In this document: one piece after another, positions 20,351-36,981 of the stretch
Position numbering within the stretch: position 1 is the stretch's first letter
Layout of the letters: every line of letters begins with the position of its first letter
From: Escherichia coli
GTDB taxonomy: Bacteria; Pseudomonadota; Gammaproteobacteria; Enterobacterales; Enterobacteriaceae
Length of the DNA stretch: 64,000 bases
Reading direction: 5' to 3' (one strand)
Assembly: GCF_030013595.1 (NCBI RefSeq)
Contig: NZ_CP122768.1
The notes under the pieces: generated by a model
The model's input: the letters and a program-made list of their open reading frames with translations, nothing else
Told to the model about the DNA's origin: nothing
Databases searched by the model: none
Made by a program: the position numbers and the translations under genes

Positions 20351-21085
20351 ATGTCCAAACTCGATCTAAACGCCCTGAACGAACTGCCGAAGGTAGATCG
20401 CATTCTGGCGCTGGCAGAAACTAACGCCGAACTGGAAAAACTGGATGCTGAAGGCCGCGTTGCCTGGGCGCTGGATAATCTGCCCGGTGAATATGTACTT
20501 TCTTCCAGTTTCGGCATTCAGGCGGCGGTGAGCCTGCATCTGGTGAATCAGATTCACCCGGATATCCCGGTGATCCTGACCGATACGGGTTATCTGTTCC
20601 CGGAAACCTACCGCTTTATTGACGAGTTAACGGACAAACTCAAGCTCAACCTGAAAGTGTACCGCGCTACCGAAAGCGCCGCCTGGCAGGAAGCGCGCTA
20701 CGGCAAACTGTGGGAGCAGGGCGTTGAAGGCATTGAAAAGTACAATGACATCAACAAAGTCGAACCGATGAACCGGGCGCTGAAAGAACTGAATGCGCAA
20801 ACCTGGTTTGCTGGCCTGCGCCGTGAACAATCCGGCAGCCGCGCCAATTTACCGGTGCTGGCAATTCAGCGTGGCGTATTTAAAGTGCTGCCGATTATCG
20901 ACTGGGATAACCGAACTATTTATCAGTACCTGCAAAAACATGGCCTGAAATATCACCCATTATGGGATGAAGGATATTTATCGGTCGGTGATACCCATAC
21001 AACCCGTAAATGGGAACCCGGCATGGCGGAAGAAGAAACGCGTTTCTTTGGCTTAAAAAGAGAATGTGGGTTACACGAAGGGTAA
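20351..21085 (+). CDS. cysH: Phosphoadenosine phosphosulfate (PAPS) reductase
   Basis: 244-aa [26 protein letters not shown]...; ATG 20351 preceded by GAGG. Confidence 0.95.
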
Positions 21086-21103
21086 ATATTGCCGGATAAA
21101 TTA

Positions 21104-21140
21104 AACGCCTCTGTCAGAAATGATGGGGGCGTTTTTATTT
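21104..21140 (+). terminator. Probable cysH terminator (aaacgcc...ggcgttttt atttt)
   Basis: GC stem with T-run 20-55 nt after cysH stop; loop is long so call is tentative. Confidence 0.4.
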
Positions 21141-21251
21141 TGCGAGCAGCATTCCTGATTTTAAACGTGAACGCCGCTGGAAGAATTATCAGGTATAGAA
21201 TGGCGTTGGGTGCTTGAGGCTGTCTGGCGTTAAGCATTCGCGAGGTTCCAG

Positions 21252-21356
21252 ATGGACAAAAGCCCCAGGCGATATTTCTATCAACCTGAGGCCAGCGTTC
21301 GAACCCAAACAATTCGAATGTTAGTCTCTTCTTTGCAGGGAGGCAAGGCATGCTGA
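21252..21356 (+). CDS. Mok-like leader ORF overlapping the hok start (candidate translational-coupling frame)
   Basis: 34-codon [37 protein letters not shown] ending in TGA that overlaps the hok ATG; architecture typical of hok/sok loci. Confidence 0.3.
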
Positions 21357-21502
21357 CAAAATATGCCCTTGTGGCAATCATAGTGCTGTGTTTTACAGTA
21401 CTGGGATTCACGCTGATGGTAGGCGACTCGTTGTGTGAGTTGAGTATCAGAGAACGTGGTATGGAGTTTAAGGCAGTTCTCGCTTACGAATCGAAGAAGT
21501 AG
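21350..21502 (+). CDS. Hok/Gef-family type I toxin (50 aa)
   Basis: [50 protein letters not shown]: single TM helix, conserved SLCE and C-terminal AxxAYE motif of Hok family; SD gcagggagg upstream; resembles the HokE-type sequence as I recall it. Confidence 0.75.
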
Positions 21503-21513
21503 CCACCACGCGG

Positions 21514-21523
21514 GGGTAAAACC
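21514..21523. repeat. Left copy of 10-bp target-site duplication (gggtaaaacc) of IS186
   Basis: Identical 10-mer at 22862..22871 immediately outside the other IS end. Confidence 0.8.
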
Positions 21524-22861
21524 CATAAGCGCTAACTTAAGGGTTGAACCATCTGAAGAATGCGACGCCTCGGTGCCTCGTTAAGACGATGCCTCGCGTT
21601 CTTCAATTGCGTTTTGTAGGCTGTCAGGGATACTGTCCCACGAATGGCCACCTGTAAGCTCCAGATGACCATTTTTGTTATTCTCCACAACGAGTTAGTT
21701 CTTCTTTTCGGATCCGGCACTTCTGGGGGGAAATCCAGCGATGGCTGGATTATGTCGTCAATTAAAAATGCGGCGAGTAGATTAGCAAATATCCACGCTT
21801 TCGCGAGTTCAGGTTCCTTTGCACGCAAAGCATCCAGGTGCAGCAAACTTTTGAGCCGCTTAAAAGCCAGTTCAATTTGCCATCGCAGACGGTAACAATC
21901 AGCCACTTGCTCTGCTGAATATTCATCTTCCGGTAATGATGTTAGCAATAGCACATGGCCCGCTGCTTCCAGCGTTTCCGCCTGAACTACTCGTCCTTTT
22001 CGACGATTCTCGCTGAGCAGTCGGGTTTTACTGATTAATGCTTTTTCGGGAGGAAGTGATACGGCAATGAGACGTGCCGGAAAGGGAGCTCCGGCTTTTT
22101 TATTACCTGAATTGCCTATCATTACAGTGGTTTCACCGTTCTTACCGCAATCCAGCCCGCGCAGAAAACCCATCATGTCAAAGCGCATTCCTTCTGCAGT
22201 TAACCAGCGCAATCCTCGCCAGTGAACCCGGACGATATAATCAGCTTCTCCAAAAGCAAGTGAGCGGATACATTCGGGACGCGAACCGAATCCCCGGTCA
22301 GCAATGCGTATCTCGTCTGCCGTTTGCGCAAATCGGTCCAGCCGTTCAGCGTCTCTGCTGTCGGTTAGCTCAAAATCAGTGAACTGACAGGTATGAGGAT
22401 CATATCCCATATGTAGTCGCCATTCAGCGCTGCCGCCCCCGGGCGCACTGATTGCTGTTCCATCGACAAGACGCAATCTCTTTCCGCTTGTACAACCCGT
22501 AACTGCGGCGCGTACAGCAAGTGTTTGTGCGGCAAGTATGCCAAACCAGTCGGCGGCATTCCGCAGCCGCTTCAGGAGAGCCACGTCAGATAATGTTGCA
22601 ACGTCATGGAGCTGAGCCCATGCAGTGACTTCACGTAATGACATCCCCCCGGGGCCGTAAGCCAGCCCCAGACGTAGCAGAGTTGCAGCATCACGAATTT
22701 CGCGGCGGCGGGTTAGAGCCCCGGCATTACGTGCCGAAGTATCCAGTTCTTCGGGCTTACCAATATGGGCCAGAATTGCTGACCAGTTATCGTGAGAGTA
22801 ATTCATCGGCACGTTAAATCATATCAGGCGTAATACCACAACCCTTAAGTTAGCGCTTATG
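21524..22861 (-). mobile_element. IS186 (IS4 family), complete 1338-bp copy with 23-bp perfect terminal inverted repeats
   Basis: IRL cataagcgctaacttaagggttg at 21524..21546 and its exact reverse complement at 22839..22861; single transposase ORF inside; length 1338 bp matches IS186. Confidence 0.92.
21532..22812 (-). CDS. insL: IS186 transposase (longest ORF; the conventional annotation may start at the internal Met MSLREV at complement 22644)
   Basis: ORF MPMNYSHDNWSAILAHIGKPEELDTSARNAG... recognised as IS186/IS421 transposase. Confidence 0.9.
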   Translation of the reverse strand: MPMNYSHDNWSAILAHIGKPEELDTSARNAGALTRRREIRDAATLLRLGLAYGPGGMSLREVTAWAQLHDVATLSDVALLKRLRNAADWFGILAAQTLAVRAAVTGCTSGKRLRLVDGTAISAPGGGSAEWRLHMGYDPHTCQFTDFELTDSRDAERLDRFAQTADEIRIADRGFGSRPECIRSLAFGEADYIVRVHWRGLRWLTAEGMRFDMMGFLRGLDCGKNGETTVMIGNSGNKKAGAPFPARLIAVSLPPEKALISKTRLLSENRRKGRVVQAETLEAAGHVLLLTSLPEDEYSAEQVADCYRLRWQIELAFKRLKSLLHLDALRAKEPELAKAWIFANLLAAFLIDDIIQPSLDFPPEVPDPKRRTNSLWRITKMVIWSLQVAIRGTVSLTAYKTQLKNARHRLNEAPRRRILQMVQPLS

Positions 22862-22871
22862 GGGTAAAACC
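22862..22871. repeat. Right copy of 10-bp target-site duplication (gggtaaaacc) of IS186
   Basis: Matches 21514..21523. Confidence 0.8.
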
Positions 22872-22977
22872 CCGCGTATTGAATTGTTAAAGTTTGGCCT
22901 CCTGCACCCCTTTTTTATACTCTGTTTCTGGTGGCATTGATTTCCTGCAGGCAAGGGAGTAATCATTTTCAAACCCA

Positions 22978-24015
22978 TCAAGACGCCTTCGCCAGCTCCT
23001 TCACCAGCGGTAGCATTATCCGCATAACATCACGGCAGCGACGTTCTATTCTTCCTGGAAGTGCCTTATCAATATGTTGTTGATTATCCAGTCTTACGTC
23101 ATGCCAGCTATTTCCCGCAGGGAATGCGGCTGTTTTTGCGCGTTGCTGATAACCATCTTTATTCCCAAGATTCCAGTTTGTTGCTTCTACCGAAAGTACG
23201 GCAATACCGGCTTTGTCGAAAACTTCGGCGTCATTACAACAGCCAGTACCCTTCGGATAATTTTTATTCAAACCCGGATTGGTCGTTGCGGCAATTCCAT
23301 GACTACGCGCAATTGCCAGCGCCCTGTCGCGCGTTAATTTCCTTACTGCTTCAGGGGTTTTTACACCGCTGTTGAAATACAATTTATCGCCAACAATTAA
23401 GTTATCGAGATTAATCACCAGCAGCGTATTTTTCTTTTCGGTGTCACTCATCCGCTTGAGTAAATTCTCAGCGCCTAATTTTCCTTCCTCTTCGCCGCTG
23501 GTCGCCACAAATCGAATACCATACTCGGTAGGCGTATTTTTCAGGCGTTCTGCCAGTTCCAGCATGACACCTAAACCTGCGGCGTTATCATCTATTCCTT
23601 GTAACGTCAGTCCGCCGAGATTGGCATCGGCGTCAGCATCGCTCAGCGGAGCGTAAGTATCCAGATGCGCCATAATGATGATCTGCTGCGGCGCTTTGCC
23701 TTCATGAGCGGCAATCACCGTACTTCCCGTCACGTTATGCCAGCTCTTGCGATTATCGCGGGCGGTATAAATATACCGACTATTAAATGTCCGAATATCA
23801 CTGCGATAACCCATTTGCTGAAACTGCTGGCGAATATAATCGGCAGATAACATTTCTGCAGGAGTTCCGGTCATGCGTCCCGGAAAGAAAGTAGCAATAT
23901 GTCGTGCCTGAGTATTAGCAAAATCGCCAGGTTTAGATGACGAGGCGTGTACGGGGAGAATAAAGCATACGCCGAGCGCCAGGGCAGCGGTACGGTGGCG
24001 CAATGCGGAAAACAT
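22978..24015 (-). CDS. iap: Alkaline phosphatase isozyme conversion aminopeptidase
   Basis: 345-aa ORF with signal peptide MFSALRHRTAALALGVCFILPVHA and M28-peptidase-like motifs; position beside cysD. Confidence 0.88.
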   Translation of the reverse strand: MFSALRHRTAALALGVCFILPVHASSSKPGDFANTQARHIATFFPGRMTGTPAEMLSADYIRQQFQQMGYRSDIRTFNSRYIYTARDNRKSWHNVTGSTVIAAHEGKAPQQIIIMAHLDTYAPLSDADADANLGGLTLQGIDDNAAGLGVMLELAERLKNTPTEYGIRFVATSGEEEGKLGAENLLKRMSDTEKKNTLLVINLDNLIVGDKLYFNSGVKTPEAVRKLTRDRALAIARSHGIAATTNPGLNKNYPKGTGCCNDAEVFDKAGIAVLSVEATNWNLGNKDGYQQRAKTAAFPAGNSWHDVRLDNQQHIDKALPGRIERRCRDVMRIMLPLVKELAKAS

Positions 24016-34089: not shown

Positions 34090-34157
34090 GGTTGGGAAGT
34101 CGGTGTGTTTTGTCGCCTGGATAAGACTCGTCAGCGTCCTACCCGGCAATCAGCATC

Positions 34158-34565
34158 CTATTTGCTCATCATCTTGCGCACCAACTGCATAAACAGCTCC
34201 TTCTCTTCTGCACTCAAACGCCCCAAAAATTCCTCATCCACACTGTCACCAATGGGGATCGCCGCAGCAAGTACCTTTTCTCCTTCGGCAGTCAGCCAGA
34301 CAAAGCGACGCCGCTTGTCAGCGGCGTCATGTTCACGTCTGACTAAGCCACGATTTTCCATTCTTGCCAACATTTCTGCCAGCGTTGCTTTGGTGCTGAC
34401 TGCTGCTTCTATCAGTGCCACCTGTTCGATACCAGGCTTATCAGCAATGGCGCGCATCACCGCGTACTGTGGTTTGGTGAGGTCAGGTAACTCGTGCTGC
34501 CAGCGAGCCGTGTGCTGCTGAAAAAGCTGTCGTAACTGATGGAACGCTTTATTTCGTAACGCCAT
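34158..34565 (-). CDS. MarR/SlyA-family transcriptional regulator
   Basis: 135-aa from complement ATG 34565 (MALRNKAFHQLRQLF...), winged-helix region; divergent from decarboxylase operon. Confidence 0.75.
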   Translation of the reverse strand: MALRNKAFHQLRQLFQQHTARWQHELPDLTKPQYAVMRAIADKPGIEQVALIEAAVSTKATLAEMLARMENRGLVRREHDAADKRRRFVWLTAEGEKVLAAAIPIGDSVDEEFLGRLSAEEKELFMQLVRKMMSK

Positions 34566-34711
34566 GTAAACTCCGGGCAAACTATCTGCCGCTATCATAG
34601 CGGTTTTTCAGTGACGAAGAAGATGTTGTTACTTTTCAGTGCTTGCCGCGATGAAAACAGAGGCGTATTTTAATAATGACGTTCGTATACGAACAATTAA
34701 GAGAATAAACA

Positions 34712-35305
34712 ATGAGACTGATCGTCGGGATGACAGGGGCTACCGGTGCGCCTCTTGGGGTGGCATTACTGCAAGCGCTGCGGGAGATGCCGAATGTCGA
34801 GACTCATCTGGTGATGTCGAAGTGGGCGAAAACCACTATTGAACTGGAAACGCCTTACAGCGCTCGCGATGTTGCCGCCCTCGCAGACTTCAACCATAAC
34901 CCGGCGGATCAGGCGGCGACTATCTCTTCCGGCTCCTTTCGTACCGACGGCATGATCGTTATTCCATGCAGTATGAAAACGCTCGCCGGTATCCGCGCTG
35001 GTTACGCCGATGGTCTCGTGGGGCGCGCGGCGGACGTCGTGCTCAAAGAAGGCCGCAAACTGGTGCTGGTGCCGCGTGAAATGCCGCTTAGCACAATCCA
35101 TCTCGAAAATATGCTCGCACTTTCGCGCATGGGCGTGGCGATGGTGCCGCCGATGCCTGCCTTTTATAACCATCCCGAAACGGTAGATGACATTGTCCAC
35201 CACGTGGTAGCCCGCGTGCTGGATCAATTTGGCCTCGAACATCCTCACGCCAGGCGCTGGCAAGGATTGCCGCAGGCCCGGAATTTTTCTCAGGAGAATG
35301 AATAA
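34712..35305 (+). CDS. ecdB: UbiX-like flavin prenyltransferase (phenolic acid decarboxylase subunit B, Pad1-like)
   Basis: 197-aa MRLIVGMTGATGAPLGVALLQAL..., UbiX/Pad1 flavoprotein signature. Confidence 0.85.
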   Translation: MRLIVGMTGATGAPLGVALLQALREMPNVETHLVMSKWAKTTIELETPYSARDVAALADFNHNPADQAATISSGSFRTDGMIVIPCSMKTLAGIRAGYADGLVGRAADVVLKEGRKLVLVPREMPLSTIHLENMLALSRMGVAMVPPMPAFYNHPETVDDIVHHVVARVLDQFGLEHPHARRWQGLPQARNFSQENE

Positions 35306-36732
35306 TGGCATTTGATGATTTACGCAGCTTTTTACAGGCGCTTGATGACCACGGCCAGTTACTGAAAATCAGCGAAGAGGTGAACGCGGAACCGGATCTG
35401 GCAGCCGCTGCCAACGCCACCGGACGTATCGGCGATGGTGCACCGGCGCTGTGGTTTGACAATATTCGCGGCTTTATCGATGCCCGCGTGGCAATGAATA
35501 CCATCGGTTCCTGGCAGAACCACGCGATTTCCCTCGGCCTGCCGCCAAACACCCCGGTTAAAAAGCAGATTGATGAGTTTATCCGCCGCTGGGATAACTT
35601 CCCCATTACCCCGGAGCGCCGCGCCAATCCAGCCTGGGCGCAGAACACCGTCGATGGCGACGAGATCAACCTGTTCGATATTCTGCCGCTGTTTCGTTTA
35701 AACGACGGTGATGGCGGTTTCTATCTCGATAAAGCGTGCGTGGTTTCCCGCGATCCGCTCGACCCGGATAACTTCGGCAAGCAGAACGTCGGCATCTACC
35801 GCATGGAAGTGAAGGGCAAACGTAAGCTCGGCCTGCAACCGGTGCCGATGCACGATATCGCTCTGCATCTGCATAAAGCGGAAGAACGCGGTGAAGATCT
35901 GCCGATTGCCATCACCCTGGGTAACGATCCGATCATCACCCTGATGGGCGCCACGCCGCTGAAATACGATCAGTCTGAGTACGAAATGGCGGGCGCGCTG
36001 CGCGAAAGCCCGTACCCGATCGCCACCGCCCCGCTGACCGGTTTTGATGTGCCGTGGGGCTCGGAAGTGATCCTCGAAGGGGTTATCGAAAGTCGTAAAC
36101 GTGAGATTGAAGGGCCGTTCGGTGAGTTTACCGGTCACTACTCCGGCGGGCGTAACATGACCGTGGTGCGTATCGATAAAGTCTCTTACCGTACCAAACC
36201 GATTTTCGAATCGCTCTATCTTGGTATGCCGTGGACCGAAATCGACTACCTGATGGGGCCTGCCACCTGCGTGCCGCTGTATCAGCAACTGAAAGCCGAG
36301 TTCCCGGAAGTGCAGGCGGTAAACGCCATGTACACCCACGGCCTGTTGGCGATTATCTCCACCAAAAAACGCTACGGCGGCTTTGCCCGCGCGGTGGGCC
36401 TGCGTGCAATGACCACGCCGCACGGTCTGGGCTACGTGAAGATGGTGATTATGGTCGATGAAGACGTTGATCCGTTCAACCTGCCGCAGGTGATGTGGGC
36501 GCTCTCCTCGAAAGTGAACCCGGCAGGCGACCTGGTGCAGTTGCCAAATATGTCCGTGCTGGAACTCGACCCTGGCTCAAGCCCGGCGGGGATCACCGAC
36601 AAGCTGATTATCGACGCCACCACGCCTGTCGCCCCGGACAACCGTGGTCACTACAGCCAGCCGGTGGTGGATTTACCGGAAACCAAAGCCTGGGCTGAAA
36701 AACTGACTGCTATGCTGGCCGCACGTAAATAA
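35305..36732 (+). CDS. ecdC: UbiD-family (de)carboxylase (phenolic acid decarboxylase subunit C)
   Basis: 475-aa ORF; TAATG overlap with upstream gene. Confidence 0.85.
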   Translation: MAFDDLRSFLQALDDHGQLLKISEEVNAEPDLAAAANATGRIGDGAPALWFDNIRGFIDARVAMNTIGSWQNHAISLGLPPNTPVKKQIDEFIRRWDNFPITPERRANPAWAQNTVDGDEINLFDILPLFRLNDGDGGFYLDKACVVSRDPLDPDNFGKQNVGIYRMEVKGKRKLGLQPVPMHDIALHLHKAEERGEDLPIAITLGNDPIITLMGATPLKYDQSEYEMAGALRESPYPIATAPLTGFDVPWGSEVILEGVIESRKREIEGPFGEFTGHYSGGRNMTVVRIDKVSYRTKPIFESLYLGMPWTEIDYLMGPATCVPLYQQLKAEFPEVQAVNAMYTHGLLAIISTKKRYGGFARAVGLRAMTTPHGLGYVKMVIMVDEDVDPFNLPQVMWALSSKVNPAGDLVQLPNMSVLELDPGSSPAGITDKLIIDATTPVAPDNRGHYSQPVVDLPETKAWAEKLTAMLAARK

Positions 36733-36742
36733 GGAGAACAAG

Positions 36743-36979
36743 ATGATTTGTCCACGTTGTGCCGATGAACAGATTGAAGTGATGGCGAAATCGCCGGTGA
36801 AAGATGTCTGGACGGTCTACCAGTGCCAGCATTGCCTTTATACCTGGCGCGATACCGAACCGCTACGCCGCACTAGCCGCGAACATTATCCCGAAGCGTT
36901 CCGCATGACGCAGAAAGATATTGATGACGCGCCGATGGTGCCGAGCATCCCGCCGCTGCTGGCGGAAGGTAAGCGCTAA
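36743..36979 (+). CDS. ecdD: Small Cys-rich subunit D of phenolic acid decarboxylase
   Basis: 78-aa MICPRCADEQIEVMAKSPVKDVWTVYQCQHCLYTW..., CxxC...CxxC; 10 bp after ecdC. Confidence 0.7.
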   Translation: MICPRCADEQIEVMAKSPVKDVWTVYQCQHCLYTWRDTEPLRRTSREHYPEAFRMTQKDIDDAPMVPSIPPLLAEGKR

Positions 36980-36981
36980 AT

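Follow-up and report, generated by a model that had tools for sequence, protein, structure and literature searches.

The closest described systems

The plasmid-borne hok/sok locus of R1, which mediates post-segregational killing, provides the paradigm for loci of this kind. Only translation as far as the hok start region is needed in R1, and a terminal GC stem forms the end of the truncated, translatable hok mRNA and protects it against 3' exonucleases (PMC9841398). Nineteen suppressor substitutions break a CG pair in this terminal stem, and in G345A and C358A, the two mutants examined, the truncated mRNA was lost, for which the authors invoked 3' exonucleases; one broken CG pair in the stem removes both the truncated mRNA and toxicity (PMC9841398).

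Two relatives in E. coli K-12, hokE/sokE (b4415/b4835) and hokC (gef)/sokC, are accompanied by IS186B and IS186A, respectively. IS elements are described as having inactivated the K-12 hok loci, and the same is said of E. coli B hokX, which is reported to be interrupted by an insertion element (PMC7232551). Insertion beside hok genes is already published for K-12 hokA, hokC, and hokE as well as for E. coli B hokX, and bioRxiv 10.1101/527788 reports hot spots of MGE insertion in the vicinity of hok homologs.

The name hokX/sokX is used in the literature for a locus at cysH-iap (PMC7232551, PMC12736100, PMC3903273). A hok gene and sokX adjoined cysH in 90% of urological isolates (PMC12736100), a hok sok module with an IS186 insertion point was described in the CRISPR-I region (PMC3903273), and the hokX/sokX region is transcribed in EHEC EDL933 (PMC5331693). 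The locus occurs in E. coli B, O157:H7, AIEC NRG857c, and UPEC, while K-12 retains sokX (b4701) only.

Positions 21196..22916 of the window, that is, of the whole 64,000-nucleotide stretch of E. coli DNA analyzed here, were assigned to this known chromosomal hokX/sokX type I toxin-antitoxin locus between cysH and iap, in a form interrupted by IS186, and this copy is read as coding-competent and regulatorily crippled, with a probability of about 80%. The locus and its RefSeq annotation are an already known, ordinary feature, and the significance beyond correct annotation is slight, the literature already naming the locus and RefSeq calling it automatically. In annotation, this IS-bearing hokX copy is not to be assumed a working toxin-antitoxin system.

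Identity and setting of the locus

The Rfam family sok (RF01794) matched 21208..21365 on the plus strand over the full model length with 112.4 bits (E 3e-26; gathering score 59), and this was the sole Rfam match within the 64-kb window, so that chance is excluded and the leader is homologous to the leaders of hok mRNAs. Because the model represents the sense strand of the mRNA from its 5' end to the hok start, the plus-strand match does not give the strand of Sok. The toxin ORF of 50 amino acids occupies 21350..21502 on the plus strand, with the ATG at 21350 and a TAG ending at 21502. Upstream, the end of cysH at 21085 precedes a terminator-like hairpin (21103..21134); downstream of the locus, iap lies on the minus strand at 22978..24015.

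The window shares with the hokX/sokX loci of other E. coli the site, the flanking cysH, the protein WP_000956460.1, and the antisense gene, whereas its IS-bearing hokX directly adjoins iap without cas genes and without the CRISPR-I array, an arrangement encountered in one other complete genome in the collection, that of strain 7CC. The cysH-cas3 spacer of K-12 follows the window collinearly as far as the hok ATG, beyond which the two differ, the K-12 toxin ORF being lost. The synteny of cysH, hokX, and iap is kept in Pseudocitrobacter, Kluyvera, Atlantibacter, Pluralibacter, and other Escherichia species.

Among the described systems, K-12 hokE/sokE is the closest paralog, with a Hok protein 78% identical to HokX and the same leader boxes. 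It resembles the window in the absence of the canonical mok ATG and in carrying IS186 within the equivalent GGGG-N6-CCCC stem flanked by a 10-bp duplication, yet it resides at a different site (ybdK-entD) with IS186 in the opposite orientation. In K-12 hokC, IS186 occupies the equivalent hairpin in the same orientation as in the window, and the two mRNAs agree in their first 14 nt (GGGTGCTTGAGGCT), whereas the Hok protein is 37% identical and mokC has a canonical start inside the 5' end of SokC, in frame with hokC. The window and R1 have in common the order of tac, ucb (AGCCCC), Sok target, a hok Shine-Dalgarno sequence complementary to the -35 box of Sok, Hok ORF, GC stem-loop, and fbi, although the two Hok proteins are only 34% identical. 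Overall, HokX shares 33-50% identity with HokA, HokB, HokC, and R1 Hok.

IS186 insertion at the 3' stem-loop

Comparison with K-12 IS186 identified the element at 21524..22861 as IS186/IS421, 1,338 bp in length, with 23-bp terminal inverted repeats (CATAAGCGCTAACTTAAGGGTTG) and its transposase ORF on the minus strand. It equals IS186A and IS186B of K-12 minus one base in a G-run at 21725..21730, and it is annotated as an IS421-family transposase in relatives. The hallmarks of a simple insertion of this IS4-family element are all present, namely inverted repeats at both ends, a 10-bp direct duplication (GGGTAAAACC), and a GC-rich palindromic target, GGGGG-TAAAA-CCCC. The insertion site is a GGGG-N6-CCCC stem-loop, 7 nt past the hok stop. 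A deletion of the cas genes mediated by IS186 was considered and rejected for the window: both copies of the 10-bp duplication are preserved, and past the IS the sequence agrees with the IS-free, cas-less locus of HCP5S3_I2 (L001). The event was a simple insertion into an arrangement that already lacked cas. IS186 also lies in the equivalent stem of K-12 hokE and hokC, between 10-bp duplications (GGAGTAATCC and GGAGTGATCC), and in a plasmid hok gene, too, IS186 sits in the hairpin.

The sequence-only reading had reconstructed a GC hairpin at the 3' end before the insertion. Taking out the IS with one duplication copy yields CGCGGGG-GTAAAA-CCCCGCG, and the reconstruction was borne out by HCP5S3_I2, in which this sequence is intact within 435 nt of 100% identity. 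In the window, the left part of the split stem-loop spans 21509..21523 (+), including the left target-site duplication GGGTAAAACC at 21514..21523, and the right duplication, of the same sequence, at 22862..22871 is followed by the 3' arm of the stem-loop up to 22876. The intact structure has an 8-bp stem (-18.4 kcal/mol), and with IS186 in place the stem no longer forms, so the window is left without the protective GC stem-loop. The same reading had taken this hairpin for the fold-back element of the mRNA, which proved to be a misassignment, as the fbi is a separate box beyond IS186 and the hairpin corresponds in position to the terminal stem of the truncated R1 hok mRNA. The hairpin split by IS186 is accordingly to be regarded as the stability stem of the processed mRNA, and the fbi is to be sought on the far side of the IS.

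Long-range pairing of the mRNA

The 5' end of the hok mRNA, placed by position 1 of RF01794 and by folding, carries the tac element GGGTGCTTGAGGCT (RNA GGGUGCUUGAGGCU, nt 1-14) at 21208..21221 (+). Its partner, the fbi GGCCTCCTGCACCC (RNA GGCCUCCUGCACCC), was placed at 22896..22909 (+) by its duplex with tac and by covariation, and together with a T-run at 22911..22916 it marks where the hok mRNA ended before the insertion. Removal of the IS from the sequence gives a reconstructed hokX mRNA of 361 nt, in whose minimum free-energy (MFE) structure nt 1-14 pair with 22896..22909, followed by the U-run. The fold of this IS-free mRNA has a z-score of -4.2, and the 5'-3' pairing and the stem-loop are retained in the MFE and centroid structures alike. 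The tac/fbi duplex (-23.5 kcal/mol) was reached by 0/500 shuffles and 0/2,909 random genomic windows. This pairing is found in the reconstructed IS-free mRNA and not in the window, where the boxes are split by the 1,338-bp IS186 and the fbi is displaced by 1.34 kb. From the MFE fold of the IS-free mRNA we infer, as an inference only, an additional pairing between a 3'-UTR box, TTGAATTGTT, at 22879..22888 (+) and the complementary leader segment 21308..21317 at the 5' edge of the Sok target.

The order of stop codon, 5-8 nt, GC stem of 7-9 bp, about 20 nt, fbi, and T-run is shared by some 30 loci of the hokX, hokE, and hokB types, which come from Escherichia, Pseudocitrobacter, Kluyvera, Atlantibacter, Klebsiella, Pluralibacter, Enterobacter, and Pseudescherichia. 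Across these loci, tac and fbi change together, with GGGTGCC/GGCACCC in some and GGGCGCC/GGCGCCC in others, and R1 differs from the window by compensatory changes as well (GGCGCUU/AAGCGCC); such compensatory changes support the tac-fbi pairing.

SokX and the promoters

An antisense sok RNA had been expected from the sequence on the minus strand around 21230..21320, and K-12 bears this expectation out, since its ncRNA sokX (b4701) corresponds base for base to 21252..21310 of the minus strand. The 5' end of sokX lies at 21310, and in the fold of the RNA a short 5' tail precedes a GC-rich stem-loop, after which comes CUUUUGU, a stem-loop and U-run terminator. Judged by its sequence, sokX is a short cis-encoded RNA that overlaps the leader of the toxin mRNA and has its own promoter and terminator.

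The sokX promoter, which the earlier reader could not place, is now placed by homology with sokE and R1. It spans 21318..21346 on the minus strand, with a putative -35 box TTGCCT (21346..21341), a spacer of 17 nt, and a -10 box TAACAT (21323..21318), from which 7 nt lead to the transcript start, a G at 21310. The layout is common to hokE (TTGCCT-17-TACCAT) and the R1-type plasmid locus (TTGCGC-17-TATCCT), and, as in R1, the -35 box and the hok Shine-Dalgarno region are complementary. For the hok mRNA, homology points to a putative -10 box TAGAAT at 21196..21201 (+), 6 nt before the presumed 5' end, whose position equals that of TATAAT in K-12 hokC and TAAGAT in K-12 hokE. A consensus promoter scan called neither the hok nor the sokX promoter, because each matched 8/12 consensus positions against a threshold of 9.

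Leader reading frames and the mok question

A leader ORF of 34 codons starts at 21252 and ends at 21356 (+), with a GAGG Shine-Dalgarno sequence at 21242..21245 spaced by 6 nt. The sequence-only reading had described it as a mok-like frame whose TGA overlaps the hok ATG. The TGA (21354-21356) does fall inside ATGCTGA and the two ORFs share 7 nt, but the stop lies one base past the hok ATG, without literal overlap. The likeness to mok holds by half: the frame is the ancestral mok frame and ends at the ATGCTGA stop, as in Kluyvera (L026), whereas it is neither canonical nor conserved, as its start lies 48 nt upstream of the site of the mok ATG, its product has no DUF5431, and stop codons close it in most other hokX alleles. 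The 34-aa product gave no Pfam match, PF17496 (DUF5431) being absent even at E <= 10, and no NCBIfam match. By contrast, the Mok of R1 comprises 70 codons, matches DUF5431 (PF17496) with E 2.9e-41, extends over the whole of hok, and has its start 7-9 nt into the 5' end of Sok, the relative place at which K-12 mokC and mokB also start.

At the corresponding site of the window (21288..21301, +), comparison of hokX loci revealed the canonical mok Shine-Dalgarno sequence GAGG at 21288..21291 and a TCG at 21299..21301 in the position of the mok ATG; the GAGG of a canonical mok is thus kept, but the start codon that canonically lies 7-9 nt inside the Sok 5' end is missing. Scanning one genome per species for the pattern yielded 30 stretches whose leaders are related. 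The hokX loci of Kluyvera, Klebsiella (K. michiganensis), and Pluralibacter have GAGGCCAGCGTATG at the mok start site and keep GAGG-N7-ATG, whereas all Escherichia and Pseudocitrobacter hokX loci examined have GTTCG or GTCCG instead, the ATG being replaced by TCG or CCG. Even where the start is kept, the frame and peptide of the canonical mok differ among the Kluyvera, Klebsiella, and Pluralibacter loci: in Kluyvera L026 the ORF has 18 codons and ends at the same ATGCTGA as in the window, and in L042 and L043 a 1-nt difference sets it in frame with hok.

The 34-codon ORF itself is open to the hok start in one allele group only, made up of the window, L001, L002, and L009, to which the K-12 remnant is identical in the retained leader stretch. 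In this group the ORF, which has a GAGG and begins with ATG 21252 where the SokX duplex has its 3' edge, meets no stop before ATGCTGA, whereas in the O157:H7-type and several other Escherichia-type alleles the upstream ORF stops 25-77 nt before the hok ATG; the ORF from the equivalent of ATG 21252 stops at codon 6, 18, or 23 in the other hokX alleles. A shorter ORF of 12 codons at 21318..21356 (+), noticed in the leader comparison, ends at the same TGA and lacks a Shine-Dalgarno sequence. With one exception among the listed hokX/hokE-type loci, the frame from the ATG at this position extends to or past the hok start, but its conservation is not readable as evidence of translation, because the ATG is complementary to the final three bases of the sokX -10 box. 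In K-12 hokE, unlike the window, a 4-nt insertion before the ATG brings the upstream frames into register with hokE, which yields an 83-codon fusion without the ATGCTGA end, and the upstream ATG of hokE itself is non-homologous in position, in frame in K-12 and closed after 22 codons in other strains.

From its sequence, the window allele is thus predicted to have a leader ORF through which ribosomes can reach hok; this ORF is not a canonical or conserved mok. A literature search for mokE and mokX returned magneto-optics papers only, and an annotation of mok in hokX or hokE by analogy with R1 is not valid.

The loss of the mok start raises the question of whether Escherichia hokX was translationally silent before IS186 arrived, in which case the IS would have struck a hot-spot sequence neutrally instead of inactivating the gene. 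The replacement of the ATG in Escherichia and Pseudocitrobacter, with its retention in the other three genera, agrees with such a history, as do the closure of the upstream ORF in most alleles and the finding that mutations in the R1 mok start codon abolish Hok toxicity (PMC9841398). Against it, the Hok ORF is under purifying selection also where the canonical ATG is missing (pN/pS 0.0-0.15 for pairs with pS >= 0.1), hok has a strong Shine-Dalgarno sequence of its own (GGGAGG-6-ATG), the 34-codon ORF of the window allele would deliver ribosomes to the hok start, and the 12-codon ORF is open in nearly all loci. We therefore regard prior silence as unlikely, though deserving of some weight, and retain the reading of a coding-competent gene crippled in its regulation by the insertion. 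A speculative extension, to which we give little credence, would have the canonical mok start lost throughout the Escherichia hokX/hokE branch and ribosome access to hok dependent on the allele, leaving E. coli populations naturally polymorphic for the translational coupling of a conserved toxin, with IS186 in the 3' stem as a second recurrent off-switch.

Mechanism and state of the interrupted copy

For the uninterrupted locus, we infer a mechanism from the R1 paradigm, with support from the folds and covariation. The mRNA of about 361 nt would be closed and untranslatable through pairing of the 5' tac with the 3' fbi. Slow trimming of the 3' end back to the GC stem-loop would then release tac and allow the mRNA to refold, after which the refolded hok mRNA would either be translated via the leader ORF into hok or be bound by SokX and destroyed.

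In the window, the hok transcript would instead continue into IS186 and possess neither fbi closure nor the protective stem end, and the stable inert pool of mRNA that gives delayed killing should consequently be lost. The protected active mRNA species would be lost too, while SokX would still be made. The predicted leader without fbi holds tac in a local 5' hairpin, resembling the metastable structure described for R1. Thus, the toxin gene of the window copy is most likely coding-competent but regulatorily crippled and effectively silent, in line with what has been reported on the IS-flanked hokC and hokE of K-12 and hokX of E. coli B (PMC7232551).

A terminator-like site on the hok strand within IS186 (22076..22095) bears on a different outcome, in which the hok mRNA would end inside the IS, be translatable, and be held only by constitutive SokX, so that the locus would still work and loss of SokX would kill the cell. 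The ORF, the hok Shine-Dalgarno sequence, the leader ORF up to the hok start, and the promoter and terminator of sokX are all intact, and for K-12 gef (hokC), in which IS186 has the same orientation, a transcript ending within the IS and control by the antisense RNA have been reported (PMC3562002), from which it follows that expression is not wholly abolished by an IS at the hairpin site. Within IS186, the best nearby pairing partner of tac, with a complement of 12 bp (21566..21579, -17.9 kcal/mol), might in principle act as a weak substitute fbi. It is not claimed as such, because about 3.4% of random 85-nt genomic windows reach this energy (p ~0.03), which is within chance and weakens this point in favor of a working locus. 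R1, moreover, needs the terminal GC stem for any stable active mRNA (PMC9841398), and that stem is split in the window; the literature also treats IS-flanked hok loci as inactive (PMC7232551). A locus that still works as a toxin-antitoxin pair is thus unlikely, and the crippled copy remains the preferred reading, one that may nevertheless retain some residual function.

The toxin reading frame

The sequence-only reading had recognized Hok hallmarks in the 50-aa ORF, and the hydrophobic N-terminal stretch, SLCE, and KAVLAYE are indeed present. Residues 5-46 match Pfam HOK_GEF (PF01848) from model position 1 to 42 of 42 with E 3.5e-11, and the NCBIfam models HokA and Hok match HokX under their curated cut-offs. 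The protein has the family architecture of about 50 aa, comprising an N-terminal hydrophobic helix, a conserved Cys, an L-C/Y-E motif, and a polar C-terminal tail. The alignment to Hok paralogs and R1 Hok, proposed earlier as a check, found the conserved family residues kept: C14, T16, L28-C29-E30, E39, and A45 are shared with HokA, B, C, E, and R1 Hok, and the ORF is not a decayed fragment. The hok Shine-Dalgarno sequence GGGAGG (21338..21343, +), 6 nt before the ATG, is invariant in alignment A1. An identical protein, WP_000956460.1 (Hok/Gef family protein), is annotated in RefSeq across E. coli.

Against relatives, the hok ORF gave pN/pS values of 0.06-0.45 for pairs with pS >= 0.1, which indicates purifying selection on the Hok peptide. 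The idea that the 50-codon ORF is a chance frame or decayed fragment and not a gene, for which no supporting point was found, has practically no chance of being right and is refuted by the Pfam match, the annotation of the identical protein across E. coli, and syntenic orthologs in several genera with pN/pS far under 1. The Hok ORF is free of disabling mutations, an observation that by itself counts against a crippled state.

Frequency among E. coli genomes

In a survey of 5,426 complete E. coli genomes, the hokX locus (441 nt) was present at >= 80% coverage in 4,145 (~76%). About 1,280 genomes fell under 80% coverage; most of these are taken to be K-12-like, because H84, the one example listed, stops at the hok ATG like K-12. 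The hairpin site was empty and uninterrupted in 3,416 of the 5,426.

IS186 junctions were counted with 1-kb queries that included unique cysH sequence. Counts from a 121-nt junction query were dropped, as they were confounded by the junctions of hokE-IS186, hokC-IS186, and plasmid hok-IS186. The arrangement cysH-hokX-IS186 occurred in the orientation of the window in 591 of the 5,426 genomes and in the opposite orientation in 171. IS186 thus interrupts the hokX hairpin in 762 genomes (~18% of those bearing hokX), and the presence of both orientations implies at least two independent insertions.

The cysH-hokX-iap interval and the neighbouring CRISPR array

The type I toxin gene hokX was found between cysH and iap with nothing intervening in Pseudocitrobacter (L024 and L025), Kluyvera (L026 and L043), Atlantibacter (L032 and L046) and Pluralibacter (L041), and therefore the layout of the window, which has no cas genes in its cysH-iap interval, resembles a wider family state. 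Comparison of Pseudocitrobacter with E. coli gave amino acid identities of 97-99.5% for cysH and 100% for HokX, while iap was merely 82% identical. This drop suggests a recombination boundary near hokX.

A type I-E CRISPR array lies at 4201-4749 in the queE-ygcE interval and consists of nine 29-nt repeats, GAGTTCCCCGCGCCAGCGGGGATAAACCG, with a period of 61 nt; two of its spacers (4413-4444 and 4474-4505) have the same sequence, and degenerate repeat copies occur near 5185-5249. Considering the cas-less cysH-iap interval, the array is an orphan as far as the window goes. In strain 7CC, the closest collinear genome, only about 95 nt stand opposite about 990 nt of the window (4230-5222), a segment that contains most of the array.

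Collinearity with strain 7CC also assigned the genes downstream of rpoS (window ~34150-36980) as one encoding a MarR-family regulator and three encoding subunits B, C and D of a non-oxidative hydroxyarylic acid decarboxylase. K-12 is not known to carry these regulator and decarboxylase subunit genes in its rpoS-mutS region.

Allelic variation of the leader and the 3'-UTR

Among loci L008-L012 and the window, the part of the leader that lies at the 5' edge of Sok (21296-21320) occurred in at least three E. coli allele forms, AACCCAAACAATTCGAATG, AACCTAAGCAATTCGGATG and AACGTAGCAATTCGGATG. The 3'-UTR segment predicted to be its pairing partner (22886-22899) varied too, reading GTTAAAG or GTGATGG, and a single strain (L009) combined both forms. 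The changes in the leader and the 3'-UTR may represent coupled evolution of the long-range pairing or of Sok specificity.

The IS186 copy at hokX

Compared with IS186A and IS186B of K-12, the IS186 of the window (21524..22861, minus strand) lacked a single base in the G-run at 21725-21730. This lengthened its transposase ORF from 370 aa to 424 aa (426 aa if an upstream GTG start is used), and the ORF now closes with a new tail of 56 residues, which extends to the end of the element. Because exactly this 424-aa protein was recorded from 130 contigs, E. coli O104:H4 2011C-3493 among them, this form is a recurrent IS186 variant, and the missing base is probably not a sequencing error.

The hok-side end of IS186 contains a stretch at 21566-21579, CGCCTCGGTGCCTC, complementary to tac, the 5' end of the hok mRNA (21208..21221), and the two were predicted to form 12 bp, four of them G-U, with an energy of -17.9 kcal/mol, a value that about 3.4% of 85-nt genomic windows taken at random equalled or bettered. 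In K-12 hokC, the first 14 nt of the mRNA and the orientation of IS186 are both the same as at the window hokX.

Plasmid and tandem hok copies

Plasmid p98203-contig_8 (NZ_CP173553.1, L016) carries a hok gene with IS186 at the same position 3' of the stop codon and IS150 just upstream, and is a further example of IS elements clustered around a hok gene. Tandem hokE-type or hokB-type pairs, about 500 bp apart, were observed in several Escherichia genomes (L021, L029, L034 and L039), and in each pair one copy had an open leader ORF and the other a closed or frame-shifted one.
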